DNA of 64,000 nt from Scenedesmus sp. PABB004. Its lineage: Eukaryota. Every line of letters begins with the position of its first letter. Position 1 is the first letter of the stretch. Position numbers and translations under genes: made by a program. The notes under the pieces were generated by a model. That model saw nothing but the letters and a program-made list of their open reading frames with translations, was not told where the DNA came from and did not search any database. Location of the stretch: the NCBI GenBank assembly GCA_014905635.1, contig JABVCE010000035.1, positions 124,001-188,000 of the forward strand. The letters run 5' to 3'. Below are positions 6,960 through 63,200 of this stretch, piece by piece.

Positions 6960-9307
6960 ATGGCGGCGTCGCGCTACGCGATGATCAGCATCCCCGAGGC
7001 CACCGCCATCGTGCTGGGCGAGACGCGCGTGCTGGACGCGGAGCGCGTGCCGCTCGGCGCCGCGCTCGGGCGCGTGCTCGCCGCGCCCGTGACGGCGGCC
7101 GACGCGCTGCCGCCGTTCCCCGCGTCGATCATGGTGCGGCGGCGGGCGCCGCGGCAACGCCGGCGAGGCGCGCCGACGGCCGGCCCCGCGCGGCGCCGAC
7201 CCCGCCGGGCGCCGACCCCGCCGGGCGCCGCTGTGCGCAGGACGGCTACGCGGTCGTCGCGGCCGACGGCGCGGGCGAGTTCCCGGTCGCGGGCGAGTGC
7301 CGCGCGGGCGCGACCGACCCCGCCTTCACGCTCACGCCCGGGCACGTGGCCTACATCACCACCGGTGCGGCGCCGCCGCGGCGGGCGGGGCCCGCGCGCC
7401 GCCGCACCTGCGGACTGACGGCGCCGCGCCGCGAGCGCGGCCGCAGGCGCGCCCGTGCCGCCGGGGGCCGACGCCGTGGTGAAGGTGGAGGACACCGAGC
7501 CGGGCGCGCCGGCAGGTGCGCGGGCGGCGGGGCGCTGCCGCGCGGCCAGCGCCGCCGCGCGGACCCGCGCGCCGCCCCTGCCCACCCGCCCGCCCGCCGT
7601 TCAGGCGACGGCCAGCCGCGCCGCGTCGTCATCCGGGCGGCGGCAAAGCCGGGGCAGCACATCCGCCCCGTCGGCTCCGACATTGAGTGAGCGCCCGCCG
7701 CCGGCGCGGCCCGGCTGCGCGGCGCCGGGCCGCGCCTCGCGGCCCTCCCCGTCGGCCCACCCCCCTCTCTCGCCCACGCCCTCCCCTCTCGCCCACGCCC
7801 GCTCGCCCTCGCACACACACGCGCGCGCGGCGCCGCGCCGCGCCAGGGCGGGCGCGGAGGTGCTTGCCGCGGGCGTGCGCGTCGGCGTCGCCGAGGTCGG
7901 CATCCTCGCGACCGTCGGCGCGGCGGCGCTCTCCGTGCGCCGCCGCCCGCGGCTCGCGGTGCTGTCGACGGGCGACGAGGTCGTCGCGCCCGACGCGCCC
8001 GGCCCGCTCGGCCCGGGCCAGATCCGGGACTGCAACCGCGCGATGCTGCTCGCCGCCGCCGCCGCGGGTGGCGCCGAGGCGCTGGACCTCGGCATCGCGC
8101 GCGACGCGGAGGGGCACCTCGAGGGCGCGGTGGCGCGCGCGCTGGACGCGGGCGTCGACGTGCTCGTCACCTCGGGTGCGGCGCGGCTGCACCCGCCGCC
8201 GCGCCCGCCGCCGCCGCACGCACCGCACGCCCGCGCCGCGCGCCCGCCGGCCCGCGCCCGCCGGCCCCGCGCCGCCGCCAACGCGGCGGCGACGCGCCGC
8301 GCCGCGCGCGCGCCGGCCCGCAGGCGCCGTGTCCATGGGCGACCGTGACCTGCTCAAGCCGCTGCTGGAGGCGCAGGGCAAGGTGCGCGGACCGCGGCGC
8401 GGGCGCCGCGGCGCCGCCGCGGCCCCGCTCCGCCGCGCGGGCGCCGCCGGCGGCGGCTCAGCGGCGCGCCTGCGCGGCGGCGGCTCAGCGGCGCGCCGGC
8501 GCGGCGGCGGCTGAGCGGCGCGCCTCCGCGGCGCCGCGCGGCGCGCCCGGCGTGCAGGTGCACTTTGGCCGCGTGCTCATGAAACCGGGCAAGCCGCTCA
8601 CCTTTGCGACGCTCGACGCGGCCGGCGGCCGCCAGCTGCTCGTGTTTGGCCTCCCGGGTGAGCCAGCCGCCCCCCCCCCCCCCCGCGGCCGCGCCCGGCC
8701 GGCCGGCGCGCGCCCCACTCCGCCGCGCGCCGCCGCCGCGCCCCACGCCGCCGCGCCGTGCGCGGCCGCCGTCGCGTCTTGCGCGCAGGCAACCCCGTGA
8801 GCAGCTTCGTGTGCTTCCACCTGGTCGTGCTGCCCGCGCTGCGCAAGATGGCGGGCTGGCGCGCCCCGCAGCTGCGCCGCGTGCAGGTCGCCACGACGAG
8901 CGCGCTGCGGCTCGACCCCGAGCGCCCCGAATACCACCGGGTGGTGCTGCACTACGGCAGGCGCGGCATGACGCGCGGCGCGCGGCTGGGCGCGCGGCGC
9001 GGGGGCTCGCCGCATGCACGCGACGCGCGACGCCCGCCCCGCCTGCGCCCCGCCCGCGCTCGCGCGCAGGCTGCCGGCGGCGTGCGGCGCGGCGCCCGGC
9101 GCGCTCGGCTGGTTCGCGGTGACCACGGGCAACCAGATCAGCAGCCGCCTGCTGTCGGCGCGCAGCGCCAACGCGCTGCTCGAGCTGCCGCGCGCGAGCG
9201 GGGAGCTGCCCACGGGCGCGACCGTGTCGGCGCTCCTGATCGACGACCTCGCCGCCAGCCCGCAGGAGCCGGGAGACGTGCCGGCGACGCCGGGGTTCGA
9301 GGGGTGA
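6960..9307 (+). CDS. CNX1E: Molybdopterin molybdenumtransferase (MoeA / gephyrin E-domain), stand-alone E domain, 9 exons
   Basis: Spliced motifs [108 protein letters not shown]. Confidence 0.95.
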
Positions 9308-9585
9308 GGAGGCTTGGCCTTGCAGGCAAAGATTTGTCATGCGCCGGCTTCGACGAGCAAAGCCGCACGACGCCCGCCGCCGCCGCTCAAAGCCCGCCGC
9401 GCGCCATGCCGTCGACCATCGCGCCCGCCTTGTAGCCCGACCGGTTGTCGCGGCGCACGAGCTGCACGTTGTGCCCCTGCTCCAGGCACGTGACCGCGGC
9501 GTCGACCTTCTGGCGCACGCTCTCGCGCGTCATCTGCGGTCAGCGACCCCAGCGACGGTTGGGTGTTGTCCTAAACAACCGCACC

Positions 9586-12259: not shown

Positions 12260-14630
12260 TGCGGCCGCGGGGCCGGGGTCGGCGGCCGGCGCGGTGGCGA
12301 CCGCGCGCGGGGCTACCTGCGCACAGTGCGGCGGCGCAGCGCGGCGCGGCTCTCACCGCCTCGAACGGCGTGCGGCCGAGCAGCAGCTCGTACGCGAGCA
12401 CGCCGACCGACCAGACGTCGACCTTGGCGTCGTACCACTTGGAGGGGTTGGTCTTGTGGTCCTGCGGGTGCGCCTTGACGGGGCAGTCCAGGATCTCGGG
12501 GCTCAGGTAGTCAATGGTGCCCAGCCTGCGCGCCGGCGGCGGCGGCGGCGTCGTGGGCACCGTCCGCGTCGGCGTCAGCGGCGGCGGCGTGCAGCGTGCA
12601 GCGTGCTCAGCGCAGCGCGCGGCGCGCACCGCGTGTTGGCGACCTCGTAGGAGGAGTGGATGCTCAGCCCAAAGTCGGCGAGCTTGATCTGGTAGCTCGT
12701 GGTCAGCAGAATGTTCTCGGGCTTGACGTCGCGGTGAATCATGCCCTGGCGCGCCGCGGCGGCGACGGACGACGCGGCGCGGCGTGGGCGCGCGCGCGGC
12801 AGCGGGGTGCAAGCCCGCGGGCGCCGCGCGCCCGGAAGGGGTCCCGCGCGGCCGGCGGCGGCGCACCAGCTCGTGCGTGTAGTGCAGCGCGCTCATGGTG
12901 GGCTCGAGGATCATCGGCACCACCACGCTCTCCGGCAGCCGCCCGCCGCTCTGCTGCAGGAACGTGAACACGTTGCCCTGCGGCGCGGGGCGCAGGCGCG
13001 GCGCGCGCGGCGCCGCGGTCAGCGCACTCTAGGCTCGGTCAACGTCTGAGCACGCAACAACTGGTCGAACTGGTCTGAAACAGCGCAACACAGCGCCAAC
13101 AGCGCCACAGCAACGCACGGCGGTGGCCCGGCCGCCGCACCTCGGGGGCCCACTCCAGTACGAGGTAGATGTAATCCTTGTCCTTCCAGGCGGCGTAGAG
13201 CGCGATGATGCTCGGGTGGTTCAGCTGGATGTGCAGCCAGATCTCGCGCGCGATCTGCGGCCGCGCGCACGGCAGCACGGCGGCAGCGTCAGCACGCGGC
13301 GGCGGCGGCCGCGGCGGCGGCGTCAGCGCGCTGCAGCGGCGGAGGCGCCAAGCGCGGTGGCGGCGGCCGGCGGCGGGCGCGGCGCGCGCCTGGTGTCGCT
13401 CCATGTCGTTGAGCATCGTGCGCTTGTAGAGCTTCAGCCCGACCGTGATGCCCGACTTGCGGTCGACGGCGCGGTAGACGCTGCTGATGTGCCCCGCGTA
13501 GAGCTTGGACCGGATCTCAAACGCGCCCAGCGACCTGCGAGGCGGGCGCGGCGCGCCGCCGGCGGGGTCCGGCGGGCGGCGGCGGGCCGCCTGCTGGGGC
13601 GGGGCGCCGCCGCCGCGCGGCGCGCGCGGGCGCGGCGCCGGGCGGCGGCTGCAGCGCACCAGGTCTCCTTGAGCATCGCCGCGGGGCAGTGCTCCGCCAC
13701 CGCGATCAACGAGCTGCGGCGGCGGCGGCGGGTGCGCGTGAGCTGCTGCGCCTGCGCCCGCGCCCTCAACACAAGTTTGACCGGCCAGGCGCCCGCGCCC
13801 TCCTTGCGCGCCGCTGCCTATCGTGCACCGCGCCGCGCACCTTTCATTGTCCTGCTGCTGCTGCGGCGGCGGCGGCGGCGGCGTGTGCTCGCCGCCGCCG
13901 CCTTGCTGCTGCTGCTGCTGCTGCGCCGCGCCGCCGTCGCCGGGCGCGCCCGCCGCCGCGTCCGCTGCGTAGCGCGCCCCGTCGTGCCCGTAGCAGTGCG
14001 TCGCCGTGGCCGGCGCGGACGCGCTGCGGTGGGTGCGCGGCGGGGGCGGCGTCGGCGGGCGCCGGCGCGCGCACAGCGTGCACAGCACGCTGCTGCCGCG
14101 CCCCGTCCGCACGCGGCCGGCGCGCCCTCCCAGCGCCGCCGCCGCCGCTGCTACTGCTGCCGCGGGCAACGGCCTTGCCCCACGCCCGGCCGCGGCACCG
14201 TCGGCGCCGCGCCGTGCGCGCGGCGCACCCGTTCGCGCCGCCGGGCGTGGCGGGGTTTTCGGGCGTGAACGCTGCCACGCCGTCGTCGGCGGCGCGCGCG
14301 CGGCCGTTGCTGGACTTGCCGCTGCGACGGCGCGGGCGACGGGGGCGGCGGTGGGCCGGCGGGGCGGGGCGGTGGGCGGCAACAGCAGCAACAGCAGCAC
14401 CAGGCCTGGACCGCCCCTTGCTGCGCGGTGCTCCCGCGCGGGGCCGCCAGCGGGCGCCGGCTGAATGCGGACGTCTCGTCCGCGCCACATGCGCTGCCTG
14501 CCGCGCCGCTGCCGGCCGCGGGGCGCCCGCAACGCTGGTCAGCCGGCATTGCCGGCCGCCCCCCGCCCCGCAGGGCGCCCGCCCGAGCTCGCGCGGCCGC
14601 TCACAACAGCTCCTTGAGGGCGTGCTTCAT
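11459..14630 (-). CDS. Aurora-like Ser/Thr protein kinase (~12 exons; N-terminal exons uncertain)
   Basis: VGLKLY, RHQ|IAREIWLH, HPSIIALY, IHRDVKPENILL, KLADFG, RLGTIDYLSPE, YDAKVDVWSVGVLAYELL, HPW. Probable start MKHALKEL at 14630 followed by a GTGAGC donor. Stop TGA at 11461-11459. Confidence 0.85.
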
Positions 14631-14901
14631 GACGGCCCCCAGGGAGCTCTAAGCGTCCATCCTGTTGCCAGAAAACCGAAGCTGTTGTGCCGGCCGTCCC
14701 CTGTGCGCGAGAGCGGCGGTTGGCGACGCTGACGGCGGGCGGCTGGGCTGCGCGGGCGGCGACGAGGCAAGCGGGCGGCGGGGAGTTTGTGCCGACGCGC
14801 GCGGCGGCGGCGGTGCACGCCGCTGCGCCCTGCGCCGCGCCGCGCGGCGGTGTCCGCGGCTCGGGAAACGCACGCACGCATTGAGCACGGGCCGGGGGGC
14901 G

Positions 14902-17256
14902 TCACACGGCGAGGGGCTCGCCCGCGCCCGCGTCACTCCCGCCGCCGGCGGCCGCGGCTGCCTCGGCCGGGCCGCCGCCACCGGCGTTCGCCTCGCCGCG
15001 CCCGCCGGCGCCGGCGTCGGCCTCCAGCTGCGCCAGCACCGAGTCCAGGGCGAAGAGGCAGGAGGGAATGAAGTGGTCCCTCACCATGGCCGGGTTGAGA
15101 CGCACGCGGCCGTACGCGGCCTGCACGTCGCGCACCTCGATGAGAGCGTACGCGTCGCCCAGCCCGGGCGTCCCCGTCGCACCCGTGAGCGGCGGCAGCG
15201 CCGGCGGCGCGGCGCCGGTCTGCGCCGCGGCGACGACGCTCGCCGGCAGCAGGTGCAGGACGCGGCCGACCGGGTACATGCGGCGCCGCGCCGCGCGCTC
15301 CGCGGCGCGGTCCTTGTCGGGGCTGCTGCCGGCGCTGGCCGGCGCGGGCGGCGCCGCCCCGCCGCCGCCGGCAGGCGGCGGCGACGGCGCGCCGGCCGCG
15401 CCGCCGCCGGGCGCCGCGCCGCGCCGCGCCGCCGCCGCCAGGCGCGCGAGGTCGGCGGCCGACGCGCCGCCGCCACCGCCGGCCTCGCGCAGCAGCTGCT
15501 CCGCGGCGGCCGCCTCCTGCGCGTGCGCGGCGCTTAGCGCGCCGCCGCCCTCGCCCGTGCCCACCGCCGCCATGAGGGCGGAGATGCTCGCCCGCAGCGC
15601 CGGCTGGTTGGGCGCCAGCGCCACGACCAGCGAGCCGCCGGCGCCGCCGTCGGCGCCGTCGCGCTCGGGCAGCAGGTCGGGGTCACTCTCGCTGTCGCCG
15701 TCGAGACCCTCATCCGCCGCGCCCTCGCTGCCGCTGCCGCTGCCGCTGCTGCCGCTGCCGCCGCCGGGCCGGCCGGGGCTGCGCCGCCGCCGCGCGCGGC
15801 TGCGCCGCCCCGCCGCCGCGCCGCCCCGCGACTCGCGCTCCATGCGCATGAGATCGCTGCTGCTGCCCGGCGCCGTCGTCACCGCGCCTGCCGGCGTGGG
15901 CGCCGGCGCGGGCGCGGGCGCCGGCTGCGCCTGCAGCCGCTGCGCCGCGCGGCGGCCCTGCTCGCCGCCGCCGCCCGCGCCCGGTGCGAGCCAGGCCGCG
16001 CCGCCGTCGCCGGCGACGGGCGCGACACACGCGCCGAGCACCGGCAGCGTGCCCTTGAGCAGGTGGCCCGTGGTGGCGATGGCCGCGCGCCCCGCGTGGC
16101 CGACCGTCTGCCCCAGGAGCGCGACGACGCTGCCGCCGCCGCTGCCGTGGCCGCCCTCGCCGTCGGCGACCCAGCCGCCGCCGGGGCCGCCCAGCACGCT
16201 GTCCCAGGCCCAGCCGCGCCGCCGCAGGCTCAGCGGCACGGGCTTGCCGGCGCTGCTCGCGGCCACCGCGGCGTCGGCGTCGCCGTCGTCGGCGCTGCCG
16301 CTCCAGGCCGCCGCCGACGACACGGGCAGGCCCGCCGCGCCGCCGGCCCCGCCCGCCGCCGCCGCCGCCGCGCTGCTGCTGCTGCCGCCGCCAGCGACAG
16401 CAGCCTCCGCGCCCGGCGCCTGGCCGTCGTCGTCGTCCTTCTTGCCCGGCGCCGCCGCCGGCCGCTTCGTGCCGAGCACCGCCCGCGACGCGGCCTGCAG
16501 CCCGCTCGCCAGCCCGCTCGCCAGCCCGCCGGCGCCGCCGCGCCTGCCGGTGGCGCCTGCGCGGCCGCCCGGCGGCGGTCCCAGCTCCGCTTCGAGGTCC
16601 CCGGCGTCCGCCGCCGACAGGCACGCCTCCAGCGCGCGCTCAACCAGCACCGCCTCGTCGCTGCCGGGTGGCGGCCCCGCGCCGCTGCCCGCGGGGCCGG
16701 CGTCGCTGCTGCGGCGCCGGCCGATGCGCAGCCAGGACGCGCCGCCGCCGCCGGGGCGCGCCAGCAGGCCGGAGCGCTCAGAGGGAGCGAGCCCGCTGCC
16801 GGCGTCGGCCGCGCCGCCACCAAACCAGCCCGCGAGCGCGCCACGCCGGGGCGCCGGCGGCGGCACGCCTGCCCGGTCGCCGGGCTGGCGCGGGCCGCGG
16901 CTGTAGCAGGAGCGCGGCGCGGCGCTGTAGCACGAGCTGCGGCGGCGGGCGGGGGCGCGCGTGCGGACAGTGATCAGGCGGGCGCCCGCAGGCGGCGCGG
17001 CAGCGGCGGCGGCGCTGCTGCGCGGCTCGCCTGAACGATGTGGCCGCCCACTGCGCCGTGCCCGCCGCGCCGCTGGCGACAACGCGCAGGCTGCTGCTCA
17101 GGTTGGCGGCGAGGCGCTGGCGCACGCTGTCCCTGAACTCTGCAAACCAGGCCGACTCGGTGACCTGTGCGGGGGGTGCGGGCCGGCAGGCGGGGTGGGC
17201 AGCAGTGCCCGGCCAGCCGCGCAGCGGGGCGTGCGCTGTGCGGCGCGGCCGGCTGC

Positions 17257-17315
<59 letters not shown>

Positions 17316-18993
17316 ACCTCCTGGCGCAGGTCGTCGATGGCCGCCGAGCTGAACGACGGCACGACGTCGGTGCCTGCGCAGCGGCGGCGGCGATTGCCGG
17401 CCGACGGTCCAAGGAGCGCTGCCGCCGCTGCGGCTGCTGGCGCCGCCGCAAGCGCCGCCGCCGCCGGCGCCGCACCGTGGACGAGGGTCGTGACGAAGCT
17501 CGCGCAGCTCCGCCCCAGGTCCAGAGTCATGCACGCGGGGCACGCAATCGCCAGGGCGGTCACGTGCGCGAGCTCCGGCGCCTGCCGGCGCGGCGCGGCG
17601 CGGCGCGTGTGGGGCTCCGCCCCGCGCCGGCGCGGCGGAGCGCGGGGCCCCCGAGCAGCGCCCCCGCCCCCGGCCCCGGGCCGACCTTCTCTCGCAGCAG
17701 CATCGCCAGCATCGCCGCAGTGCCGCCGCCCATCGAGTGCCCTGCGGCGAGCGGCCGCGCGCGTGCAGCGCGGCGCCGTGGTGCGGCGGCACCGGCGCAG
17801 GCGTGCGCGCCGTGCAGAGCGGCCGCGCGCGCCGCGCCGCGCCGCGCCGCGCCGCACCGACGACGCGCAGCTCATAGCCCGGGTGCGCCGCGACCGCGGC
17901 GGCGAGCGGCTCGCGCGTGCGGCCGAGCAGCCAGCGCGCGGCGGCGAGCATGCCCAGGTGGGAGTAGCCCAGCACGACGCCGCCGTCGGGCGTGACGGCG
18001 TGGTGCGGCTTCACCGTGCCTGCGTGCGGGGCGCGCCGCTGCGTCGGCGGCGCGACGCACGGGGGAGCGGGGCTCGCAGCGCCCGCGAGCTCCCTCCCCT
18101 GCCCTCCCCGCCCAATCCCTGCGCGCCGCACCGGTGAGGCTGGTGAACATGTCTTGCCGCGAGTGCGTGCCGCGCACGCACAGCACGATCGCGGCGCTCT
18201 CGCGGTCGCGCACGAGCACGTACGCGGGGCGCAGCAGCCCCGCGGCGGGGCTGTGAACCAGGACGTCGGACGCGCCTGCGGGGCGGCCCGGCGCAGGCGG
18301 GGCGCGGGCAGGTCTCGGCGGGGCGCAGTGGGACGCGGCGCGACGCGGCGCCGGCGGCAGCGCGAGCCGCGCGCCGCGCACCCAGGCCGATCGTGTCGTG
18401 CCAGTGGCGGCGCTGCTGCTCGGGGCGGTGGTGGCGCAGGCCCTGGCAGAGCAGCATCACGCGCCGCGCGCCGCGCAGCTCCGCCGCGAGCGCGGCCGCG
18501 GCGCCGGGGGCGGCGGCGAGGCCGGGGCCGGCGAGCGGCACGCCCGCGGCCGCGATGTCGGCGGCGGGGTATTCGACCGTCGTCCGGCGCGCCAGATAGG
18601 CGAGCCCAAAGAACAGGTCCAGCGCGTGCCAGCGGCCGAGCGTCTCCTGGTACGTGTAGCTGCGCGGCGGCGGTGGGCGCGGCGCCGCGGCGTCCACGAG
18701 CAGCGGCGGCGGGCGCGGCGGCCGGCGCGCGGGCGCGGGCGGGGCATGCCGCGCGCGCTGCGTGCTTGTCGCGGTGGCGCGCGCGGGGCCCCGGCGGCGG
18801 CGCCGCACCGCAGCGCCTCATGGAAGAGGTACACGGTCTCGCGCCACGTCTGCGGCGGCGCCTCGGTGCGCGCGTGCGGCTCGTCGCGCGCCGGCAGCAG
18901 CCCCTCCGCGCCGCCGGCGCCGCCGCACTGCCAGCGGCGCAGGTAGACGTAGAAGCCCAGCGCCGCCGCGCCGACGGCCATGGGCGAGGCCAT
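14902..18993 (-). CDS. Class-3 lipase (mono/diacylglycerol-lipase-like, Lipase3_N + Lipase_3) with a long low-complexity C-terminal region
   Basis: YTYQETLGRW..LDLFFGL, LLRPAY, LCVRGTHS, GYSHLGMLAAARW, nucleophile motif G|HSMGGGTA, ACPACMT, VHG|TDVVPSFS, C-terminal MYPVGRVLHL and MVRDHFI. Confidence 0.9.
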
Positions 18994-19180
18994 GCCGCGG
19001 CGCGGCGCGGCGCATGCGGCCGCCCGCCGCCCGCGCCGCCGCGCGCCGCCGGCGGGGCGCCGCGCCCCGCGCTGGGGCGCCTGGGTCGAGGGCTGCGCGG
19101 CGCGCCGAGCAGAAGGGCGCGGGGGCTGGCCGGTTGGCGCTGCGCCGCGCAGCGCACGGGGACAGCGCGGCGGCGCGCCC

Positions 19181-19211
<31 letters not shown>

Positions 19212-19589
19212 GTGCTGCTGGTCTGGTGCTGCCGATCAGCTCTGTGGTCACACCGCGTCGCGCGGAGCTGGCTGGCGGTCGCGGGCGGCGTCAGGGCGCA
19301 ACCTGAATGAGGTGCGGCACTCTTCTGCAGCTCCCCGCCTGCGTTCGCGATACCCACTCCATCGCTCCCGGGCGGAGGGTCGCTCCCCTCGCCCGTCTCA
19401 CCGCCGCTCGCGGTGCCCAGGCGCGCCAGCAGCCTGCAGGCTCTGCAGCAGCAGCAGCAGCAGCAGCGGCGGCGCCCGCCGCGCCGCGCCGCATCGCCGC
19501 GCCGCATCGCCGCCGCGCCGCATCGCCCCGCCTCCGCCAGCCGCGCGGCATCGCCCCGCCTCCGCCAGCAGCCGCCGCACGCAGCAGCG

Positions 19590-21088
19590 ATGTCGAACAG
19601 CAAGTATGCGAAGCTCCAATCGCGCCAGAACTACCCGCGCACATGGGCGCTGGACCTGTCGGCGACGCCGACGCGCCCCGGTTTCTGCTGCTTCGCCACG
19701 TTCTGGTGCGCGGCGCGTGGGGGCGGCAGGGTTGCTCCTGCTCGCGCCACGGCCGCCCGACCGCCGCGCGCCGCCGCCGCCGCCGCGCCACACTGCAGCT
19801 CCTACTGCGCATCATACACCCTGCGCAAGCAGGCGCTCTACGGCGACATGTCCCGCTACGTCTGCTGCAACGGCGACTGCCCCTGCTCGGGGCGCTGCGG
19901 CGAGCAGAGCAACCCCGAGTGCTGCCTCTGCATGGAGGTGCGGCGCGCGGGCGGCCGGCCGGCGCCACGGCGCCCCGGCGCGGACCCGACCGCGCGCGCG
20001 CGCGCCGCTCACCCCGCCGCCGCGCCGCCGCCGCCGGGGGGCCGCCCGGCAGGTGTTCTGCTGCTTCGCGCAGAGCGTGGCGAGCACGCGGTGGATGATC
20101 CAGGACGAGCTGCGCATCCAGACGACGAGCTGCGACAACTGCATCATCGGCACGAGTGAGCGCCGCCGCCCGCCGCCGCGCGCCGCCGGCTGCGCGCCCC
20201 TCCTCCCCCCTCCGCCCTCCGCTCCCCCCTGCCGCGCGCCCGCCACTGCGCCGCACAGCTCACCGCCCGCCGCCGCTCACCACCACCACCACCGCTCTCC
20301 CCCGGCAGTGATCTTCATGCAGTACTTTGCCTGCCTCTGCTCCATCGCCGCGTGCCTCACGGGCAGTCAGGAGATCAACGACCTCGCGCAGCTCCTCGAC
20401 TGCGTCGCCGACGTGCTCTGGTGCACGTGAGCGCCGCAGCGGCGCGCACGGCGCGCACGGCGTGCGCAGCGTGCGCAGCGTGCGCAGCGTGCGCAGCGTG
20501 CGCAGCGCGGCGCGGCACCGGCGCCCGACCGACCGCGCGCCGATCGACCGCGCGGCGCCGCAGTGTGTGCGCGTGCATGCAGACGCAGCACAAGGCGGAG
20601 CTGGACCTGCGCGACAGCGGCGGCGCGCCGCGCGCGCCGCCGCCCGGCCACCACGCGCCGGCGGTGCAGATGATCCACACGGGTGCGCACGCAGCGCGCA
20701 GCGCGCAGCACGCAGCGCGTGCGCACGGCCGCCGCCGACCCGCGCGGGCCGCCTGCGGCTGGCTCGAGCCGCCGCCGCCGCCGCCGCCGCCACGGTCGCG
20801 CGCAGGCGGCCACCCGCCCCAGCCTGGCGGCTACCCGCCCCAGCCGGGCTACGCGCCCCAGCCCGGCTACGCGCCCCAGCCCGGCTATGCGCCCCAGCCC
20901 GGCTACGCGCCCCAGCCCGGTGAGCGCTCGCGACCGGGGCTCGCGCGCTGCGCGGGCTGCGCCGCCTGCGTTGCAGCAGCCGACGCCGGCGCGGCCGCGC
21001 CCGCCGCCGCTGCCGCCGCGCAGGCGCCTACCCGCCGCAGCAGGCGCCGCCGGGGTACCCTCAGCCGCAGGCGGGCATGTACCGCTGA
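19590..21088 (+). CDS. PLAC8-family Cys-rich membrane protein with C-terminal GYAPQP repeats, 7 exons
   Basis: SYTLRKQALYGDMSRYVCCNG, CGEQSNPECCLCME|VFCCFAQSVASTRWMIQDE, CDNCII, VCACMQTQHKAELD, and (PGYAPQ)n. Ends AGMYR-TGA. Confidence 0.9.
20815..20919 (+). repeat. Coding 18-bp tandem repeat (PGYAPQ, ~5 units)
   Basis: ccggctacgcgccccagc units. Confidence 0.9.
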
Positions 21089-21353
21089 GCTGAGCTGAGC
21101 TGTGCTGCCAGAGGCCCCGGGGCTGATCGATTGGCCGCTTTCGATGCCGTTCGCGTTTGAACGCTGCACGCTGCACCCGCCGAGTTGGGCGCTAGAGAAA
21201 TGCACTGCCGGGTGGCGCCGCCGCCGCACACAGCACTCGCCTTTTGCCTTTTGCCCGCGCGCCGCCGGGGCGCAGGGCCTAGCGTTGCGGACGGACGGAC
21301 GGGCTGCGCGGCGCGGCGCGGCAATCTCGCCAGCTGCGGGGAAGGGAGGGAGC

Positions 21354-46646: not shown

Positions 46647-49600
46647 TCAGAGGCCGAACACCTCGAACAGCCGGCTGTTGACGTGGTCGTTGTCGACCAC
46701 GCTCACGAGCCACCACGTCGCCGCGATCTCGGCGAGCAGCGCGCGCGAGGCGCTGCCCTCCTCATACAGCGTGCCCCACTCGCTGTTCCACAGGTCAAAC
46801 GCCTCGTCCTTCCAGACCATGAAGCTCACCAGGTCCACGACCGTGGGCTGCTCGATCTCGCGCCCTGCGCGGCGCCGCGGCGCGCGCGGCGGCGGCCGCG
46901 GTGGGCTCGCGCTCGCAGGACGGCGCGCTCGCAGGACGGCGCGCGCGGCGCCGCGCGCTCGCAGGACGCGCTCGCAGGACGCGCTCGCCCCGCGGCAGCA
47001 AGCGCGCACGCGGCGCGGGCTGCGCACCCGGGAAGACGCCCCACGTGACGGCGTTGACCGCGTCCGGCTTCATGTTGCTGCGCACGTCGCCGGCCGCGTT
47101 GACGGCGACGTATGTGACGCCCGGCGCGGCGCCGAGGCGCGACAGCAGCGGCTCGAGCTTGGACGGCGCGCAGAAGAACTCGACGTAGGCCTTCTGGTAC
47201 ACGTAGCTGCGCGCGCGTGGCGGGTGGGTGGGTGTGGGTGTGGGTGTGGTGGGCGTGGTGTGCGTGTGAGTGTGAGTGTGCGCGCGGGTGTGTGTGAGTG
47301 CGTGTGGGTCCGTTGTGGGGTGCGGCGGCGCGAGCGGGCGCGCGCGGGCGGGCGCGCACCCGCCGGGGCCGCCCCAGCCAAACTGCGGGTCGGCGCTCGG
47401 CACGCCGTTGAGCGCGGGCTGCGAGTTGATGGTCAGGAAGCCGGCGGCGTTGAGCCCGGCGAGCTGGTCCTTAATCGCCGCGGTCTCGCGGTGCAGGCCC
47501 TCCAGCTCAGCCCAGGGCAGCATCGTGATGTCGCCCTGCGCGGCGCGGACGTGTGGTTGGGGAGGGGCGGGCGGGGGAGGCGGCGCGGTCGGGCGTCTGC
47601 GCCAGCCGCGCGGCGCGGCCCCGCCGCCGCCGCCCGCGCCGACACAGGCGGGCAGGCCCCCACCCGCGCGCTCCCAGCCCCGACCCCGCGCGTGCCGGTC
47701 CTCAACCCCCGCGCGCCCTGAACCGCCCCGCACCTTGCAGTAGCGCACAAAGACGTCGACCACGTCGTCGACGCCACCGAGCGCCTCGCCCCACGCCGCG
47801 CGCGCGGCGTCGCGACGCTTGTCGCTCGCCGCGTGGCGCCGCATGAACTGGTAGTCGCTCAGCGTGCCGTACGCGGGGCTGCGCGCGTTGCCCCACCTGA
47901 CGAGCGGCGGGACGGGCCGGGCGGGCGGGCGGACGGGCGGCAGAGTGAGAGTTTGAATTTGGGCTCTTGAGTGTGAGTGAGCTGACACTCGATAGTGAGT
48001 GGGGAGCGAGACCGCAGGCGGGGGGGGGGGGGGGCAGCGGCGGCGGCGGCGCGGCGGCGCACCGTCCGCTGGGGAAGGAGTCCCAGTCGAGCGTGCGGTG
48101 GAGGTAGGCCTTGGGGCGGTTGCTCCAGAAGATGGGGCGCACCGTCTGCGGCGCGGCGCCGCGTGGGCGCGGCGCGTGGGCGAGGCGGGCAGCGTCGCGT
48201 GGGCGAGGCGCGGCGGCGCGCGACGTGGCGAGGGCGCGAGGGAGCGCCGCCGCTGGCGCCCGCCGCGGGCGCCGCGCCGGCCCGCCACGGCCCGCAGCGC
48301 GCGCTGCGCGCACCTCGCCGGGGCGCGTCGCGGGGACCTGCCGCCACGGCAGCGGGCGCGGCACGCGGCTCGGCTCGAGCACGCCGACCGCCTCGAGGAT
48401 ACCCACGGCGCTGCGCTCCAGGTTGAGCGTGTACATGTGAAGCCCCGGCACGCCTGGCCGCACCCGCGGCCGGCAGGGCGGCAGGGTTTAGGGAGGGCGC
48501 CGGCCCTCCCCGCGCGCGCGGAGCGCGCCGCGGCGCCGGCGCCCCTGCCCCAAGCGCCCGCGCGAGCGTCCCGGCCCTGCCCCCACGCACCCGCGTCGAG
48601 CAGCGCGCGGCACATCTGCGCGCCGAGGCTCACGCCGTAGGCCTTGACCGCCTCGTCGTCGTCCTTGATCGCCTCCAGCGCGGCGCTGACCTCGGGCGGG
48701 ACGTCGGTCTTGCAGAACGTGGTCATGCGCTTGAAGCCGCCGTAGTTCATGATCGGCATGATGCCTGGGCGCGCGGGCGGGGGGTGCGTTATGTCATTTT
48801 GTTATTTTTGTTATGTTGACATTGTGTGTTGAAACGCACGACACGTTGCGTCGCCCCCGCGCCCGAGCCCGGGGCGGCGGCGGCGCGCGAGCGGGCCCGC
48901 GCGGCGCCGCGCGGCGCGCACCCGGCAGGATGGGGCAGGTGATGCCGATGGAGCGGCAGTCCTCCACAAACTGCGTGAAGCGCTCGACGCGGTAGAAGAG
49001 CTGCGTGATGATGAAGTCGGCGCCCGCGTCGATCTGCGGCGCCGCACCGGGCGCGGCGGCGGTTGAGCTCGGGCTTGAGCGCCGGCGGGGCTCGGGAGGG
49101 GCGTGCACGGCCGGCCGCCCCGCCCCGCGGCGCGGGCCGGCACGCCGCGCCGCCGCCGCCGCCGCCGCTGCACCCCCGCCCTGCACGCCGCACCTTTTGC
49201 TTGAGGTAGTCGAGGCTGTCCCAGTAGTTTTTCTTCATCTGCTCCGGGTCGTCCACGATAAAGTCGGGGTGCGCCTCGGGGTAGCCCGCGACGCCGATGC
49301 CAAAGTAGTCGCCGTGCTTCTCCCTGCGCGGGCGCGGGCGGGCGTCACGTTTTGCGTCATTTTGTGTGCCATTTCGGCTGCCACTTTGGTGGGCGCTGCC
49401 GTGCCGCGGCGCGCCGGCGGGGCACGCAGCACGCGCCGCGCGTGCCCTCCTCGCCCTCCTCGCCTCTCCAACGAGGCGGCGGCGACGAGGGGCCGGCTGC
49501 GCGCCCGCCCGCCTGCCAGCTCACCTCCCCCCCCCCCCCCCCGCCACACCCACCCACCCACCCACACCTGATGTACTTGACGAGGTCCAGCGCGGAGCCA

Positions 49601-50472
49601 AAGCCGCCCTCGACGACGGTGAACTCGTCCTGGCCCTTGGGCGGGTCGCCGCGCAGCGCGAGGATGTTCTGCAGCCCCGCCTTGCGCACCTGCGGCGGCG
49701 GCGGCGGCGGCGGCGGCGGAGGGCGCGGGCGCCGGCGGCGCGGTGAGGGGGCCGCGCCGCGCCGCGCTGCGCGGGCGCATGCCCGCCACCGCCGCCGCCG
49801 GCTGGCCGGCTGCCCGCTGCGCTGCAGCGGCTGCGCGCCTCGGCGAGCGCGTTGTCCAGCTTCTCGGTGGGCATGTTGGTGCAGGTGAGGTGCATCATCG
49901 TCTCGACGCCAAACTGCGCGGCGCGGGCATGTTGCGTCGGTTGCGGCCGCGTTCCGCGCTCCGCGCTCCGCGCTCCGCGCTCGACGCCGCGCCCCCGGCC
50001 GGCCGGCAGCAGCGGGCCGCCGCGGAGGCGCCGCCGCCGGCGCGGCTGGGGCTGGGGGTGGGGCCGGGGCCTGGCGCCGGCGCGCCGGCGCGCCGGGCGC
50101 ACGCGCACGCTGCGCTGCGCTGCTGCCGGCGGCGCCGGCGGCGCCGGCGGCGCCCATTCGACCCGGGCGCACCAGGTTCTGCATCTTGGTGGCGATGCCC
50201 AGCGTCACGTCGGCGGTGGAGCCGCCCGCGCCCCAGGTGATGTCGCAAAAGGTGGGCCCATACGCGACCATGCGGTCCAGGCGCTCAAACAGGTTCTCCA
50301 CACCCTGGCGCGGCCCCCGGCGGAGTGAGGCGCTGGGCACCACCGCCTCCCAGCCGCTGGGCACCCCGCCGCGGCGGGCGCGCACCTCCTCGGTGCGCGG
50401 CGGGAAGTACTCGAAGGAGAAGAACGTGCGGCCCTCCTCTATGTTCGCGTTGATCCTGTCCACGATCTTCAT
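46647..50472 (-). CDS. MTHFR: Methylenetetrahydrofolate reductase (eukaryotic type with C-terminal domain), 13 exons
   Basis: [116 protein letters not shown]. Confidence 0.98.
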
Positions 50473-53734: not shown

Positions 53735-55984
53735 TCAGCTGAACGCGACGCCGCCGCCGGGCGGCGCGCCACCGGTGCCGAGGTCGTCGGCGCGCCAGCT
53801 CACGCGCGCGTCGTCAAAGACGCGCAGCTGCGGCGCGAGGATGCGCGTGTAACGGTCAAAGTAGAGCAGCTGCTTCACAAAGAGACCAAACTCGCCTGCG
53901 TGTGCGCGGCGGCGGCGGCGGGCGGGCGGGCGGCGCCGTGGGCTGAGTTGCGCGCGCGCGGCGCGCGCCATGCGGCGGGCCGGGCGCGGGGCCGGCGCGG
54001 CGCGGCGGCGGCGCGCACGTGGGAAGCGGATGCCGTGCCGCTCCCCGATCGCCACCAGGTCGAGCAGCACCCGGTTGACCTGCGCCTGGTCAACCTCCAG
54101 CGACGCCGACAGCCCGCCCGGGCCTGCGGCATGGCGCGCGGCGGCGGGGCTCGGCAGCGCGCCGCGCTCCAGCACGGCGCGGCGCCCGGCGCGGCGGCGC
54201 GCCCCCGCCGGTGCGCGCGCGCGGGGCGCGCCGCCGGCGGCGCGCACCCGCGCCGCCGCCCGCGTCCGCGAGGACAACCAGGCTGGAGTTGAGCGACTCG
54301 AGCTCGCTGAAGAGCGACTGCAGGTCGCGGCCAAACGCGGCGTAGTCGACGTCCTCGCTGCAGGTTGTTGCGGGAGAGGCGGGAGCGGCAGTGAGTGAGT
54401 GGGTGGGTGGGTGGGTGGGTGGGTGGGTGGGTGGGTGAGTGAGTGGGTGGGTGGGTGGGTGTGCGTGGGCGTGCGCGCGCGCTCGGCGCCGCGGGGCGGA
54501 GCGATGCAGGAGCGGCGGCGGCGGCGGCGGCGCGGCGCGGACACGCGCCTGCAGGCGCCGATGGTGGCGAGCGCACGCGCGAGCGTCTCGTAGTCGCCCA
54601 CCGCGAGCGCGCCGAGCAGCGCCTCCATCGCCGCCCATGTCACGGGGCTGATGCGCCCCACGATGCCTGGCGGGGCGGCGCGCGGCGGCGGCGAGGAAGG
54701 GTGGGCGCGCGCGGCGGCAGCAAAGGTGGGCGCGCGCGGCGGCGGCCGGCCTCGGGCGCTGGCTCGGCGGCGGCGGCCCGTGGCGGCGCCCCCGCCCCGC
54801 GCGATCCACAGGCGCACCAAAGTCGATGAAGCCCACGCGGCCGTCCGGCAGCACCAGCAGGTTGCCTGCAGAGGCACGGCACGCGGCGCGCGGCCACCGC
54901 GGTGAGCGCGCCGCGCGGCCGGCGGGCGGCACGCGGCCGACGGCGGCGGCGATCGCGGCGGGTGCGACGCGTCCGCCCACCCGCGTGCACGTCGGCGTGG
55001 AAGGTGTCGGCGCCGAGCACGCTCGCAAACCAGGTGTTGAGCGCGGCGATGAGCACGGCCTCGGGGTCCTTTGCCGTCACGGCGCGAATGGAGTCGAGAT
55101 CGGTCAGCGGGACGCCGCTCAGGCGGTCCATCACGAGCACGCTGGCGGCGGCGACGGTATGGCAGCGTGGGGTGCGGCGGGCGCGGGAGAGGAGAGGGAG
55201 GGAGAGGGGTGGGACAGGCGGGCGTGCGGGGGCGCGGCGAGGGAGGAGGGAGGGCGGGCGGGCGTGGTGAGAGGAGGGGAGGGCGGGCGGAGGGCGCGCG
55301 CGGGGGCGGCGGCGCCGCCGCGCAGCGGCAGCGGCCGCGCGGGCGACGCGCCCCGGCCTCGCCCCTGCGCGCCCCGGCCTCGCCGCGCGCGCCGCCCGCC
55401 GCCCGCCGCACCGCTTGCTGCTGAACTGACGGTACACGTACGGCGCGGTCGCGACGCCGCGCAGGCCGCGGCGGTCGAGAAAGTCGTTGAAGGTCTGCAG
55501 GTGGAACGCCTCCTGCGTGTGTGCGCGGCACGGCGCGGCGGCGCACGGGTGCGACGAGGGCGTGTGACGCGGGCGCGCGTGACGGGGGCGGGCGTGACGA
55601 GAGCAAGCGTGACGAGAGCGGGTGTGACGAGGGCGGCGGCGGCGGCGCGAGCTGAGCGCACGCGGGCGGGTCCGCGCTGTCGGCCGGCTGCAAGCCGACG
55701 GCGGTGCGGTGCGGCGAGGCGGTGCGTGGTGCGTGGTGCTGCCACGCGCCGCGCCGCCGCGCGCCGCGCACCTTTGTGAAGTCGACCTCGTCCATCATGG
55801 AGGTGCGGATGTCAGAGACGATGCCGCCCAGGCTCAGGCGCGACAGCTCGGGCGCCGCAAACTCGAGCGCGCGCGTCACCAGGTACAGCTGCCGCGCGCG
55901 CGGCGCGGGCGCGGGCGGCAGCGCGGCGGGCGCGCCGTTGGGCGTGGCGCCCCCGATCCAGGGCGCGGCGGCGCGGGCACGGAC

Positions 55985-56015: not shown

Positions 56016-57099
56016 AGGGGGGCTCACAAAGTTGAGGTCGGTGACCAGCACGTCCTCCGTGCCCGGGCGCAGCACCTTCACCACCACGTCCTTGCCGCTG
56101 CCCGCCAGCACCGCCGCGTGCACCTGCGCGCGCGTGACGTGCGTGGGCGTGTGGGCGCGGCGCGGGGGGCCGCGGCGGCCGGGGCGCGAGCCGGCGCGCG
56201 GGCGCGCCGCGCGCCTGCGCGACCGAGGCCGAGGCGAGGGGCTGCGGATCGATGTAGCTGAAGACCTGCAGCGCGGCGGGGTGGGGCGTGGGGCGGGGCG
56301 CGGCAGGGTCAAAGCTGCGCGGCGCCGAGGCCAGGGCCGCGGCGCGGCGGCGGCGTGGCGGGCGGCGCCGCCGGCGCGCGGCGCGGTAGGCTGCGCCGCG
56401 CCTGCTCGAGCGGCTGCTTGAGCTCGGCGCGGATGATGCTGCGGATGGTCGAGAAGGGCACCGGGTCGGTGCGGTCGAGGCACTTCTGAAACTCCAGCAC
56501 GTACTCTGCAGCCGCGGCGGCGGCGGGGGCTCGGGCGCTGAGGGCGCGGCGCGCGCGCGCGCCGCCGCGCACAGCGCGCGCGCACCCTCCGGGAAGAGCG
56601 AGGGCGAGGAGGCGATGAACTGCCCGAGCTTGATGTAGGTCGCGCCGAGGCGCTCGAAGAGCTTGCGCAGCACCACCGGCGCCGGCTCGAGCCCGCCCGC
56701 GCGCAGCTGGTCCTGCACGAGCGACGCCACCGCGCTTGCCGCCTGCACGCTGCGGAAGACGCCGCGCGGGCCTGCACGGGAGGCGCGGCGAGGGCGTGGG
56801 CGCGTGCGGCCGGCAGCGGCGGGCCCATGCGGCGCGTGGGCGCGGAGTGGCGGCAGCGGCGGCGGCGGTGCTGCCGCTGGCCCACCCGTCGCAACCGCGA
56901 GCTGCAGAGACTCCTGCAGCAGGCCCTGGAGCTCGCGCGTCCGCTTCTCCAGCTGCTCCGGCGTCAGCGGCGGCGGGCGCTGCTGTCCCGGCCAGGCGCT
57001 GCTGCCGCCTGCCGCTCGGCACACGATGCTCGGCGCCAGCGCGCGCCCGCGGCGCGGCCGCACTCCCGCATCAGCTCTGCTGCTGAGCCGCAGCGCCAT
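53735..57099 (-). CDS. ABC1K9: ABC1/UbiB atypical kinase, plastid (ABC1K9-like), 13 exons
   Basis: [73 protein letters not shown]. Confidence 0.9.
54392..54460. repeat. (GGGT/GAGT)n tetranucleotide microsatellite in an ABC1K intron
   Basis: gtgagtgagtgggtgggtgggt... run. Confidence 0.85.
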
Positions 57100-60236: not shown

Positions 60237-63200
60237 ATGGGCGTGCGGCAGGACGCGCAGCTGGCGGCGGCGGCGGCGAGCCCGCCGCGGCAGCGCGGCG
60301 CGGCGCGGGCGGGCGCGGCCGCCGCGTCCGCGCGCGCCGCCCGACAGCAGCCCGGCGGCGCGCGGCGGCGCCGCGCGCCGCGGGCCGCCGCGGCGCTGCT
60401 GGCGCTGGCGCTGGCCGCGGCCGCGCTCGCGGGCTGGCACCGGGCGGTGTGGGGCGGCGCGGGGCGCGGCCCGCGCGCGCGCGCGCGCCCGCTCTGGTGG
60501 CACGCGCCCGTTTACAGCGGCAGCGGCTACGGCAGCGAGGCCATTTTCTTCGTCGAGGCGCTGCTCGGTGCTGGCGCGCGCGCGCTGCGGCCGGAGGACC
60601 TGTGGCTGACCCACAGCGGCGACCGCATCATCGAGCGCGCCGTGCGGAGCCTCACCCCGCGCACGCGGGCGCTCCTGCAGGTGCGGCGGGCCCCGGCGGC
60701 GGCGGCGCCCGGCCGCGCCAGGCCCGCGCCGCCGCCCGGCCGCGCCGCGCCCCGGCCCCGACCCTGACCGCCGCGCGGCGCAGCGCCAGGAGCACGGCGC
60801 GCTGCTGCGCAGCCTGCCGGCGGCGGCGCTGGACCGGCCCGCGATCGTGGTCTGCCACTCCTTCCCCGACTGCTGGCTGCTGCCCAAGGACCAGGGCGGC
60901 ATGCGCGTGCCGGTGCGCGGCGGCCGCGCGGGCGCGCACGCGGCGCGCGGGGCGAGCCAGCCTGGCTCGCGCCGACCGTCGCCGCCGCTGCGCGGCCGCG
61001 CAGGGCTGCCCCTGCCCGCCGCCGGAGGCGTCGGAGCTGGTGCGCCGCGCGCGGGGGGCCTCGCCGGGCTGCCCGGCCGCCCGCGCCGGGCTGCCTGGCC
61101 GCCGTACACAGCCGCGCCGCGTCCGCCGCCCCGCGCGCCAGGTCACGTACCGCATCGGCCGCACGATGTTCGAGTCTGACGGCCTGCCGGCGCACCTGGT
61201 GGAGCACTGCAACGCGATGGACGAAGTCTGGGTGTGAGCTCCAGCGGGCGCAGCGCGGCGCCCGCCGCGGCGGCGGGCCGGCCGCCCGCCAGCGCGCGGG
61301 TCGGCGTCGGCACGACGCCGCCCGCGTCGCCGCTGCCCAGGCCGACGGAATTCAACCGGCGGACCTTTGCCGCGGCGGGCGTCGCGCCGGAGAAGCTGTT
61401 TGTCGTTCCGCAGGGCATCGACGTGGCGGCGTTTGACCCCACAGCCGTGTCGCCGCTGACCCTGCGCGACCAGCCCGGCGCGCAGCTCGTCACCGGCGCG
61501 CCGGCTCCAGACGGCGGGCAGCGGCCGTTCGGTGCGGGCGCGCGCGCGGGCGCCGGGCGTGGCCGTCGCGCGGGCGCGCCGGCGCCCCATCTCACCACCC
61601 GCCCGCCTGCCCGCCCGCTGCGCAGCCTTCCTGAGCATATTCAAGGCAAGGCGCGCCGCGTGGAGCGCCGCCGCACGCGCCCGCCCGCCCGCGCGGCCGC
61701 GGCTAACGCGCCCCCCCCCCCCTTCCCCCCGCAGTGGGAGGCGCGCAAGGGCTGGGACGTCCTGCTGGGCGCCTATCTGCGTGAGTTTGCGCAGGACGAG
61801 GCGGTGGAGCTCCACATCGTCACGCACGCCTTTGCCGGGCACGGCCGCGAGGTCCGCGAGGCCCCCCGCCGCGCGCAGCGCGCAGCGCGCGCAGCGCGCG
61901 CAGCGCGCAGGCGCGCCGCAGCCGGCGCCTCGGCCGCCGCCGAGCTGGGCCGCCACCGCCGCGCCCCGCGCGCGCGCCCGCGCGCCCTGCAGGACTTTGG
62001 CGAGCAGGTGCTGCGCTGGCTGGAGCTCGAGCTTGGTGTGCCCGCGCGCGGCGCGGCCGCGCTGCCGCGCGTCTACATTCACGCCGGCCACGTCGACGAC
62101 GCGACGCTGCCGCGGCTGTACGCCTCGGCGGACGCGGTCGTGCTGCCGACGCGCGGCGAGGGCTGGGGCCGGCCGCATATGGAAGCGCTCGCGATGGCCC
62201 GGCCGCTCATCGCGACAAACTGGTCGGGGCCGACCGCGTACCTCTCCGAGGCCACCGGCTACCCGCTGGCCGTCGAGGGCCTCGTCCCCGCCGAGCAGGC
62301 CGCCGCCGGCACAGGCGCGCGCCGCCGCCCCGCCGGCCCGGCCGGCGCGCTGTGCGGCCGCCGCGCTGCGCGGCCGCCCGCGCGCGCGCCATGGGTGACA
62401 CGGAGTCCCCCCCCCCCGCCGCCGGCGCGCAGCCGCGGGCGCGCAGGAGGAGGCAAACCCCTACTTCACAGGGCAGCGCTGGGCGGAGCCGAGCCAGGCG
62501 CACCTGCGCGAGCTCATGCGCCGCGTGGTCGCCCGCCCCGGCGAGGCCGCGGCCCGGGGCGCTGCCGCGCGGCGGCACGTGCTCCGGCACTTCACGCCCG
62601 AGGTGCGGCGGCGGCACGCCGGGCCGCACGCCCCGCACCACGCGCGCGCCACCACGCACCAGCGGCGGGCGGCGGCGGCGCCACGCCGCGCCGCGCCGCG
62701 CGCCCCGCACCACGCGCGCACGCACCACCACGCGCGCGCCGCGGGGGGGGGGGGGGGGGGGGGGCGTCTCCGGCGCGGCGAGCCGCGTCGCATGCGTGCG
62801 CCGCCGCCTCCGCGCGCAGGTGCTGGCGCGCGCGGTGCTGGCGCAGCTGGCCCGCATCGACGCCAAGCTGGGGCGGAGCCGGCCGCTGCCGCCGCGCGCC
62901 GCGGCCGCGTCGCAGCGCGCGCTCTGCCTGGCCCAGCCCGAGCTCTGCAGCCAAGGTGTGAGGCGGCCGCGTGCTGCCCGGCGCAGCTGCAGCGGCAGCA
63001 GGGCGAGTCCGCACGGCAGCTGGGCGGCCCACGCGCCGCCGCGGCCGCCGTCACGCGCAGGCGCCGCGGGCATGGCCGAGGCGGCGCGGCGCGCGGCGAC
63101 TGCGTTCAGCTCGTACCGCGCGACTGACCCGGCGGCGCTGTCGGTGGCGGCCGGGGGGCTCACGGCCGACGAGGCGATCGCGCACGCGCGCGCGGCGGTG

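Follow-up and report, generated by a model that had tools for sequence, protein, structure and literature searches.

Protein homology points to frequent GC-AG introns at AG/GCGCG donors in a very GC-rich stretch of a green algal genome

Introduction

Introns that begin with GC instead of GT usually make up about 1% of introns, according to a survey by Iwata and Gotoh (PMC3033335), and the genes on a 64-kb stretch of the green alga Scenedesmus sp. PABB004 raise the question of whether a genome can use them far more often and, if so, what allows it to. This stretch (contig JABVCE010000035.1, positions 124,001 to 188,000; hereafter the window, with all coordinates counted from its first letter) contains 79% G+C, and a sequence-only reading of it had listed 19 GC donors that appeared to be needed to keep conserved protein motifs contiguous. 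They lie in genes for CNX1E, a protein kinase, a lipase, a CBM20 protein, CAF1, chorismate synthase (aroC), XPF, a membrane protein, MTHFR, an ABC1 kinase (ABC1K) and a GT4-type glycosyltransferase, and it had been proposed that recognition of the 5' splice site is altered in this organism. Homology to known proteins fixed the junction at 12 of these donors and lent support to two more; two others are plausible by coding score, and for the remaining three no downstream exon was placed. We consider it very likely, judging from sequence and homology, that these GC-AG introns are genuine and belong to the major spliceosome, that is, ordinary U2-type introns with C for T at the second base, whose share would exceed the usual 1% at least several-fold.

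Results

GC donors placed by homology to conserved proteins

A bare AG/GC motif (the slash marks a splice junction) proves little in the window, GC being its commonest dinucleotide (0.21 per position). All 19 listed donors do read AG/GC on their respective strands, and, just as the sequence-only reading had it, 18 of them continue as GCG(C or A)G, the exception being the donor at 61646, which reads GCAAGG. The longer string AGGCGCG is rare, with 0.00055 occurrences per position per strand and 70 copies over both strands.

Junctions were placed with a purpose-written protein-to-genome spliced aligner (BLOSUM62, affine gaps, AG acceptors, selectable donor dinucleotides), which was run in three modes allowing GT only, GT and GC, or all 16 dinucleotides ("free donors"). 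The references were 22 chorismate synthases of at least 355 aa out of 150 listed; 17 ABC1K proteins chosen out of 120 listed, including three bacterial and several transcriptome-derived ones; and five XPF proteins, four in the whole-gene run and five in the C-terminal run. Bacterial proteins (MoeA, MetF and GT4 paralogs) served for CNX1E, MTHFR and GT4, respectively, and CAF1, MTHFR and the kinase were aligned residue by residue to solved structures. Only junctions common to many references were counted. At the following 12 sites, excision of the GC-AG intron restores the conserved frame without insertion or deletion, and on these grounds we class them as probable U2-type introns.

35649 to 35901, minus strand: aroC (chorismate synthase) intron 1, GC-AG, phase 0, 253 nt, KTVSGTE/GCGCGG...CAG/ILAFVS
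34998 to 35101, minus strand: aroC intron 3, GC-AG, phase 0, 104 nt
34742 to 34877, minus strand: aroC intron 4, GC-AG, phase 0, 136 nt, following the exon end NRSGGIQ
39112 to 39232, plus strand: XPF intron, GC-AG, phase 0, 121 nt
42284 to 42417, plus strand: XPF nuclease-domain intron, GC-AG, phase 0, 134 nt, PVTLE/.../VGDYVLSPE
42514 to 42722, plus strand: XPF nuclease-domain intron, GC-AG, phase 0, 209 nt
56266 to 56401, minus strand: ABC1K intron, GC-AG, phase 0, 136 nt
56124 to 56214, minus strand: ABC1K intron, GC-AG, phase 0, 91 nt, ASASVAQ/.../VHAAVL
54358 to 54548, minus strand: ABC1K intron, GC-AG, phase 2, 191 nt
26999 to 27138, minus strand: CAF1 intron 1, GC-AG, phase 0, 140 nt, between residues 53 and 54 of human CNOT7 (2d5r_A)
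26634 to 26800, minus strand: CAF1 intron 2, GC-AG, phase 0, 167 nt, between CNOT7 residues 115 and 116
49690 to 49838, minus strand: MTHFR intron, GC-AG, phase 0, 149 nt, between residues 101 and 102 of 8uy2_A

Chorismate synthase offered the largest set of references. The donor at 35901 was chosen by 16 of the 22 when GT and GC were allowed and by 10 with free donors, while those at 35101 and 34877 were chosen by 18 and 14 references, respectively, in both modes. Two GT introns of the same gene, 35518-35251 and 34647-34519, were found with 15 and 13 references in the GT and GC mode. When any dinucleotide could serve as donor, these five consensus introns were the only junctions to reach five references (10, 9, 18, 14 and 11 of 22, in their order along the gene). 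Summed over all 22 references, the alignment score rose from 17709 with GT only to 19174 with GT and GC and 19416 when all 16 dinucleotides could be used. When decoy dinucleotides were tried on 12 references, adding GC to GT gained 762 score units, the best result among 15 dinucleotides, followed by CG (+541, through a one-codon slide), GG (+423) and the other twelve (at most 342 each).

The remaining genes gave a similar picture. In XPF, the donor at 39112 was selected by all four references with GT and GC allowed; with free donors two of the four preferred 39106, so that this junction is placed to within two codons. The donor at 42284 was selected by four of four references in both modes, and that at 42514 by four of four in the whole-gene run and five of five in the C-terminal run with GT and GC, and by three of four with free donors. 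Nine GT introns accompany these three GC introns (GT and GC mode, four references), and the summed scores of the four references were 3938 with GT only, 4575 with GT and GC, and 4773 with all 16 dinucleotides. In ABC1K, the donor at 56401 was supported by 17 of 17 references with GT and GC and by 16 with free donors, that at 56214 by all 17 in both modes, and that at 54548, the weakest of the 12, by 12 of 17 in both modes. Free donors yielded 11 consensus introns in this gene, eight GT and three GC, with no other dinucleotide among them; summed scores over the 17 references were 20007, 22064 and 22216 for the three modes in the order given above. Neither CAF1 junction introduces an indel relative to CNOT7, exon 2 corresponding to residues 54-115, and the MTHFR junction is likewise free of indels relative to 8uy2_A. 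The latter donor was chosen by three of five bacterial MetF references, proteins which are too distant for placing most MTHFR introns.

Two side observations concern introns of these genes. A GT intron of XPF, 42887-43006, is 120 nt long, a multiple of three, and stop-free, and the alignment of the JGI protein P0001 ("ERCC4-type nuclease", 386 aa) continues across it unbroken. The segment has no counterpart in four other XPF proteins, and the P0001 gene call probably reads through an orthologous intron. In ABC1K, the intron at 54358-54548 carries a short CCCAC/CTCAC-type repeat.

Two further sites are supported by homology less exactly.

13255 to 13389, minus strand: protein kinase segment, probable GC-AG intron, 135 nt, a multiple of three and stop-free
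8961 to 9069, plus strand: last intron of CNX1E (MoeA), probable GC-AG intron, phase 2, 109 nt

Once the 135-nt kinase segment is excised, the spacing of two blocks matched to PLK4 (4jxf_A) deviates by no more than one residue, which makes an intron the probable reading of this segment, as opposed to a lineage-specific insert of 45 aa. In CNX1E, the frame must change at 8961 and there is no GT within 8947-9069, although the exact junction 8961-9069 was chosen by only two of six bacterial MoeA references. These six proteins support seven GT introns in the same gene (7516-7604 in four of six).

The exons bounded by verified introns, 3864 nt in all, agree with one another in phase and are free of in-frame stops. 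A gene finder based on codon bias, for which the verified exons and introns served as the training set, found only 24 of 37 verified introns again in the genes it had been trained on and merged adjacent genes; it picks 17 of the 19 listed donors, but this agreement is circular and no intron census was drawn from it. By homology, the window holds 12 to 14 GC-AG introns. Of the 42 introns placed in genes that were picked for carrying claimed GC donors, 14 are of this type, and each of the seven genes examined in this way contains at least one.

GT donors near the GC junctions

Several points weigh against so many GC-AG introns. The fraction of 14 in 42 overstates their rate, given how the examined genes were chosen; the junction evidence rests on protein homology throughout; and five of the 19 listed sites (lipase, CBM20, membrane protein and both sites in GT4) have no homology-placed junction. 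Once GC is allowed, the aligner places false GC "introns" here and there in weakly conserved protein ends, which is why only junctions on which many references agree were counted. When one GC donor is forbidden and the others stay allowed, the median loss is only 2-15 score units, because neighbouring GC dinucleotides substitute for it. Finally, at six of the 12 fixed junctions a GT lies within one to seven codons, albeit disfavoured by homology. Its use would remove 3 aa at 56214 (GTCGCG), 4 aa at 42284 and 5 aa at 35901; at 35101, GTCTGC 6 nt downstream would add 2 aa; at 42514, GTTCAG would change the length by +1 to +7 aa; and at 54548, a GT 4 nt downstream would add 2 aa, or none if donor and acceptor both shifted by 4 nt.

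It could accordingly be argued that the GC "introns" are partly or wholly artefacts of homology-guided hand-calling, and that transcripts either use a nearby GT or keep the segment as coding sequence. Besides the six GT alternatives, this view can point to the kinase segment, whose length and lack of stops make it a possible insert, and to the abundance of the GC dinucleotide, one of which is nearly always found near any junction. However, retention would break the frame for 13 of the 14 segments, whose length is not a multiple of three. The sequence-only reading had overstated this point, having described several such introns as stop-free multiples of three; among the 14, only the kinase intron has such a length. 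Furthermore, at the other six fixed junctions the closest GT that keeps the frame would cost 12-23 conserved residues (12 at 34877, 22 at 39112, 20 at 56401, 13 at 27138, 19 at 26800 and 23 at 49838). The GT sites that do lie close by (GTCTGC, GTCGCG, GTCACG, GTCAGC and GTTCAG) all lack the GTGCG consensus, whereas AG/GCGCG is present at each of the 14 GC sites, and the shifted variant at 54548 would need a GAG acceptor, G at -3 being found in none of 42 verified acceptors. One GC site, 35901, also has an orthologous GT intron (see below). We regard an artefact of this kind as very unlikely.

Donor context of GC-AG and GT-AG introns

The 14 GC-AG introns (the 12 fixed ones, the kinase intron and that of CNX1E) were compared with 28 homology-supported GT-AG introns.

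Median length: 136 nt in GC-AG, 135 nt in GT-AG introns, with G+C mostly about 0.9 in both
Acceptor C at -3: 14/14 GC-AG, 28/28 GT-AG
Acceptor G at -4: 12/14 GC-AG, 22/28 GT-AG
Donor G at +3: 14/14 GC-AG, 27/28 GT-AG
Donor C at +4: 14/14 GC-AG, 20/28 GT-AG
Donor G at +5: 14/14 GC-AG, 26/28 GT-AG
Exon A at -2: 14/14 GC-AG, 11/28 GT-AG (Fisher p=1.2e-4)
Exon G at -1: 14/14 GC-AG, 24/28 GT-AG

Length, the acceptor CAG/G and the bases GCG at +3 to +5 are common to both classes. The full context AG/G.GCG (the dot standing for any base at +2) is found at 14 of 14 GC donors and at 7 of 28 GT donors (Fisher p=4e-6), and the enrichment persists over the 12 donors that were positioned regardless of motif (p=9e-6). 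This agrees with the earlier idea of exon-driven donor selection, since every GC donor combines A at -2 and G at -1 with GCG from +3 to +5. The earlier description of the GT donors as mostly GTGCG also holds, at 19 of the 28 verified GT donors as counted from donor contexts. Phase 0 accounts for 12 of 14 GC introns and 9 of 28 GT introns (p=0.0025). G+C at third codon positions (GC3) reaches 95.3% in the verified exons, with A at 1.8%, and exonic AG is therefore mostly supplied by the ends of CAG, AAG and GAG codons, hence the phase bias. This effect of codon usage may explain part of the uneven spread of GC donors among genes.

The introns were also inspected for signs of other splicing classes. 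No enriched motif or strong box that could mark a branch point was found in the last 50 nt of the introns. U12-type introns are recognised by a donor (A or G)TATCCTT together with a conserved TCCTTAAC-like branch site. None of the 19 donors, which read GCG... or GCAAGG, fits the U12 type, and no U12-like branch motif was seen in the intron tails; Iwata and Gotoh give the U12 motifs as ATATCC and CCTTAAC (PMC3033335).

Many acceptors have a (GCC)n tract just upstream, at the usual place of the polypyrimidine tract. AT-richer islands occur in four introns (48765-48921, 41468-41622, 34742-34877 and 49324-49567), in which intron G+C is 0.62-0.77 compared with about 0.9 elsewhere; some of these islands have A-rich runs, and none matched an Rfam family.

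The shared core of the two donor classes bears on whether the splicing machinery itself has changed, be it at the 5' end of U1, in the ACAGAGA box of U6 or in associated proteins, such that GYGCG became the cognate donor with any pyrimidine at +2. GT and GC donors alike carry GYGCG and depart from GUAAGU at +3 and +4, and related ideas have been put forward: Irimia and Roy raised a matching change in small nuclear RNA (snRNA) for the Ostreococcus donor GTGCGTG in 2008, although they favoured one ordinary spliceosome as the likelier case (PMC2483917), and Iwata and Gotoh suggest base modification or proteins of the U1 ribonucleoprotein (snRNP) as possible causes (PMC3033335). Nevertheless, the putative U1 5' ends of Aureococcus, Micromonas pusilla and Micromonas RCC299 are reported to be the consensus AUACUUACCUG, and the same authors found in the U1 sequence no explanation for the GC-AG excess (PMC3033335). 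In the window, moreover, exonic AG is still needed at 14 of 14 GC donors, as expected if standard pairing with U1 and U5 is limiting. An Rfam scan of the 64-kb window returned no match either at the gathering threshold or at E<=0.1, and thus no snRNA gene. A change in U1 or U6 would not be needed to explain the donors, because the poor fit to U1 at +3 and +4 is equal in GT donors (GTGCG), and because GTGCG has been published for green algae (PMC3879977, PMC2483917) while the putative U1 5' ends examined in Aureococcus and Micromonas are reported to match the consensus (PMC3033335). We therefore think it unlikely that the machinery has changed, and GC mutation pressure on otherwise consensus donors seems the simpler reading.

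An orthologous intron in a relative of lower G+C

The sequence-only reading had proposed to compare these introns with their orthologues in relatives of lower G+C, and this could be done at one site. Eukaryotic relatives were found by a metagenome scan with aroC exon 1. In one of them, L102 (450-1188, aligned with window 35649-36348), the chorismate synthase exon shares 94% amino acid identity with that of the window over an alignment in which 362 of 450 nucleotide columns agree. A GT intron is present in L102 at the same position and phase as the GC intron at 35901, and the acceptors correspond (TTGCAG/ILAYVS in L102, CCGCAG/ILAFVS in the window). GC3 is 0.64 and intron G+C 0.62 in L102, as against 0.95 and 0.92 in the window, a large gap in base composition between apparently close relatives. 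In a second relative, L107 (72% identity), the intron at this position likewise begins with GT. This one orthologous site points to a change from T to C at +2 as G+C rises.

A third relative, L104, is represented by a contig of 75% G+C and lacks the intron at the 35901 position. Its chorismate synthase gene has a GC-AG intron of its own at 2314-2665 (352 nt, CTTCCG/GCGAGTCG), recovered with 12 of 12 references; the donor, CG/GCGAGT, is close to the position of a GT intron of L107.

The age of the 35901 intron also bears on the possibility that GC donors arrived with a mobile family of introns, as with the introner elements of Micromonas pusilla, whose IE-A class has the same donor motif AG/GYGCG (PMC3879977). 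The position of this intron is common to two relatives and it is therefore old. A blastn comparison of the 42 introns with each other and with the window turned up no full-length intron family; all matches, which lay on either strand and window-wide, were short, GC-rich and of low complexity (73-95% identity). We find a mobile origin scarcely credible.

Remaining candidates and gene content

Five claimed donors are left as candidates.

61646 to 61734, plus strand: GT4 glycosyltransferase, candidate GC-AG intron, 89 nt, AAG/GCAAGG, FLSIFK/.../WEARKGWDVLL
62315 to 62432, plus strand: GT4 glycosyltransferase, candidate GC-AG intron, phase 1, 118 nt, from coding-score ranking
17029 to 17030, minus strand: lipase, claimed GC donor, CAG/GCGAGC by motif, acceptor ambiguous by coding score
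24195 to 24196, minus strand: CBM20 protein, claimed GC donor, CAG/GCGAGC by motif, with an upstream exon matching CBM_20 positions 5-39 and a downstream exon not placed by coding score
43966 to 43967, minus strand: membrane protein, claimed GC donor, CAG/GCGCGG by motif, with no well-scoring acceptor within 450 nt

The distant bacterial GT4 paralogs gave no consensus junction in the glycosyltransferase gene. By codon-bias score, 61646-61734 and 62315-62432 come out on top, and the same score finds the right acceptors of two control introns; going by coding score only, both introns appear plausible.

G+C lies between 77 and 82% in each of the sixteen 4-kb bins across the window, and verified exons have 0.471 G+C at second codon positions. 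Genes were placed by a Pfam scan over all 442 open frames of at least 90 aa, with the following result.

Plus strand: MoeA/CNX1E; isochorismatase; XPF/ERCC4; thioredoxin; GT4-type glycosyltransferase
Minus strand: protein kinase; CBM20 protein; CAF1; chorismate synthase; MTHFR; ABC1 kinase; SPX protein

Two regions, 14500-22400 and 27400-34200, contain many open frames with no Pfam match at E<=0.001 except the claimed lipase. The best named relative of ABC1K is from Tetradesmus obliquus (78% over 59 aa) and that of the XPF nuclease region from Parachlorella kessleri (42%), and the closest relatives of the chorismate synthase are metagenome proteins. Both named relatives are green algae, and we take the window to be nuclear DNA of a chlorophyte.

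Discussion

The likeliest cause of the GC donors in the window is GC-biased substitution at +2, tolerated only at donors that otherwise conform to the consensus. Three observations lead us to this reading, namely the invariant context of the GC donors, their phase bias and the orthologous GT/GC pair. In such a scenario, strong GC-biased substitution, of which the composition of the window would be one sign, replaces T by C at +2, which would be tolerated where pairing of U1 with the exon end, +1 and +5 compensates for the lost U:A pair, and pairing of the exon end with U5 could contribute to this compensation. GC donors might thereby build up until at least one intron in ten has them, and no change in snRNA would be required.

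A bolder proposal is that the second intron base has effectively become any pyrimidine, with GC donors at 15-30% of introns, a share above any reported for a core chlorophyte and in DNA whose G+C exceeds that of every genome in the cited surveys, and that this came about through a changed reading of GYGCG by the U1 snRNP, U6 or their proteins and not only through mutation pressure and compensation. We hold this to be unlikely; if true, the organism would be a natural test of how far recognition of the 5' splice site can drift.

The main value of these observations is practical and lies in the annotation of such GC-rich genomes, and they open no new question, why some GC-rich species tolerate many GC donors having been asked already in 2011 (PMC3033335). 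A gene finder limited to GT would mis-build many genes of the source organism, and in the genes examined a GT-only alignment drops or adds 2-23 residues at each GC-AG junction. The verified set shows a clear rule, with GC donors only at AG/G_GCG and nearly always in phase 0, following a CAG, AAG or GAG codon, and the orthologous pair, with GT in the lower-GC relative and GC here, would show the substitution directly at one site. The window also extends the known association of GC-AG introns with genomic G+C to a case of still higher G+C.

A literature search on GC-AG introns in Chlorella, Scenedesmus and Chlorophyta (in which the term GC-AG was not forced) and in Chlamydomonas and green algae returned nothing specific and nothing on the source organism. 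Comparable cases are nevertheless on record. Iwata and Gotoh tie the GC-AG excess to high G+C, and report GC-AG shares of 39.6% in Aureococcus (69.5% G+C), 22.2% in Micromonas pusilla (65.9%) and 7.7% in Chlorella sp., but only 2.7% in Micromonas RCC299 (PMC3033335); a 2024 preprint puts the share at 14-17% in Aureococcus strains and at about 14% in Pelagomonas (10.1101/2024.10.30.620910). The window shares with Aureococcus, Micromonas and Chlorella a high G+C and similar lengths of GC-AG and GT-AG introns, its own GC-AG share being the 14 of 42 from genes picked for GC donors. At 77-82% G+C it lies beyond the level of about 65% that goes with such enrichment, and above the most GC-rich genome of that 61-species survey (69.5% at most; PMC3033335), a comparison of one window with whole genomes.

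Classical GC-AG introns of animals and plants have the donor AG/GCAAGT. Like these, the GC donors of the window combine C at +2 with an otherwise best-consensus donor, particularly as regards exonic AG; unlike them, they maximise the window's own consensus, GCGCG, and not GCAAGT, and only the candidate at 61646 (GCAAGG) resembles the classical form. Their frequency would also be at least ten-fold higher.

The haptophyte Emiliania huxleyi, in which 56% of 241 curated junctions are GC-AG and nine were confirmed by RT-PCR, is similar in that its GC donors are attributed to high G+C, AG acceptors are kept and GT-limited gene finders mis-call junctions (PMC4028052). It differs in having a confirmed majority of GC donors, whereas in the window, which belongs to a green alga, GC donors are a minority placed by homology. 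Among Mamiellophyceae, Micromonas uses AG/GTGCGT and its introner elements AG/GYGCGT, with GC in 53% of IE-A1 (PMC3879977), and Ostreococcus uses GTGCGTG (PMC2483917). The same GYGCG core follows exonic AG in the window, with the differences that +6 is C or G instead of T and that there is no strong branch-point box or repeated intron family. The abundance of GC-AG introns in the window matches the pattern described for other GC-rich algae.

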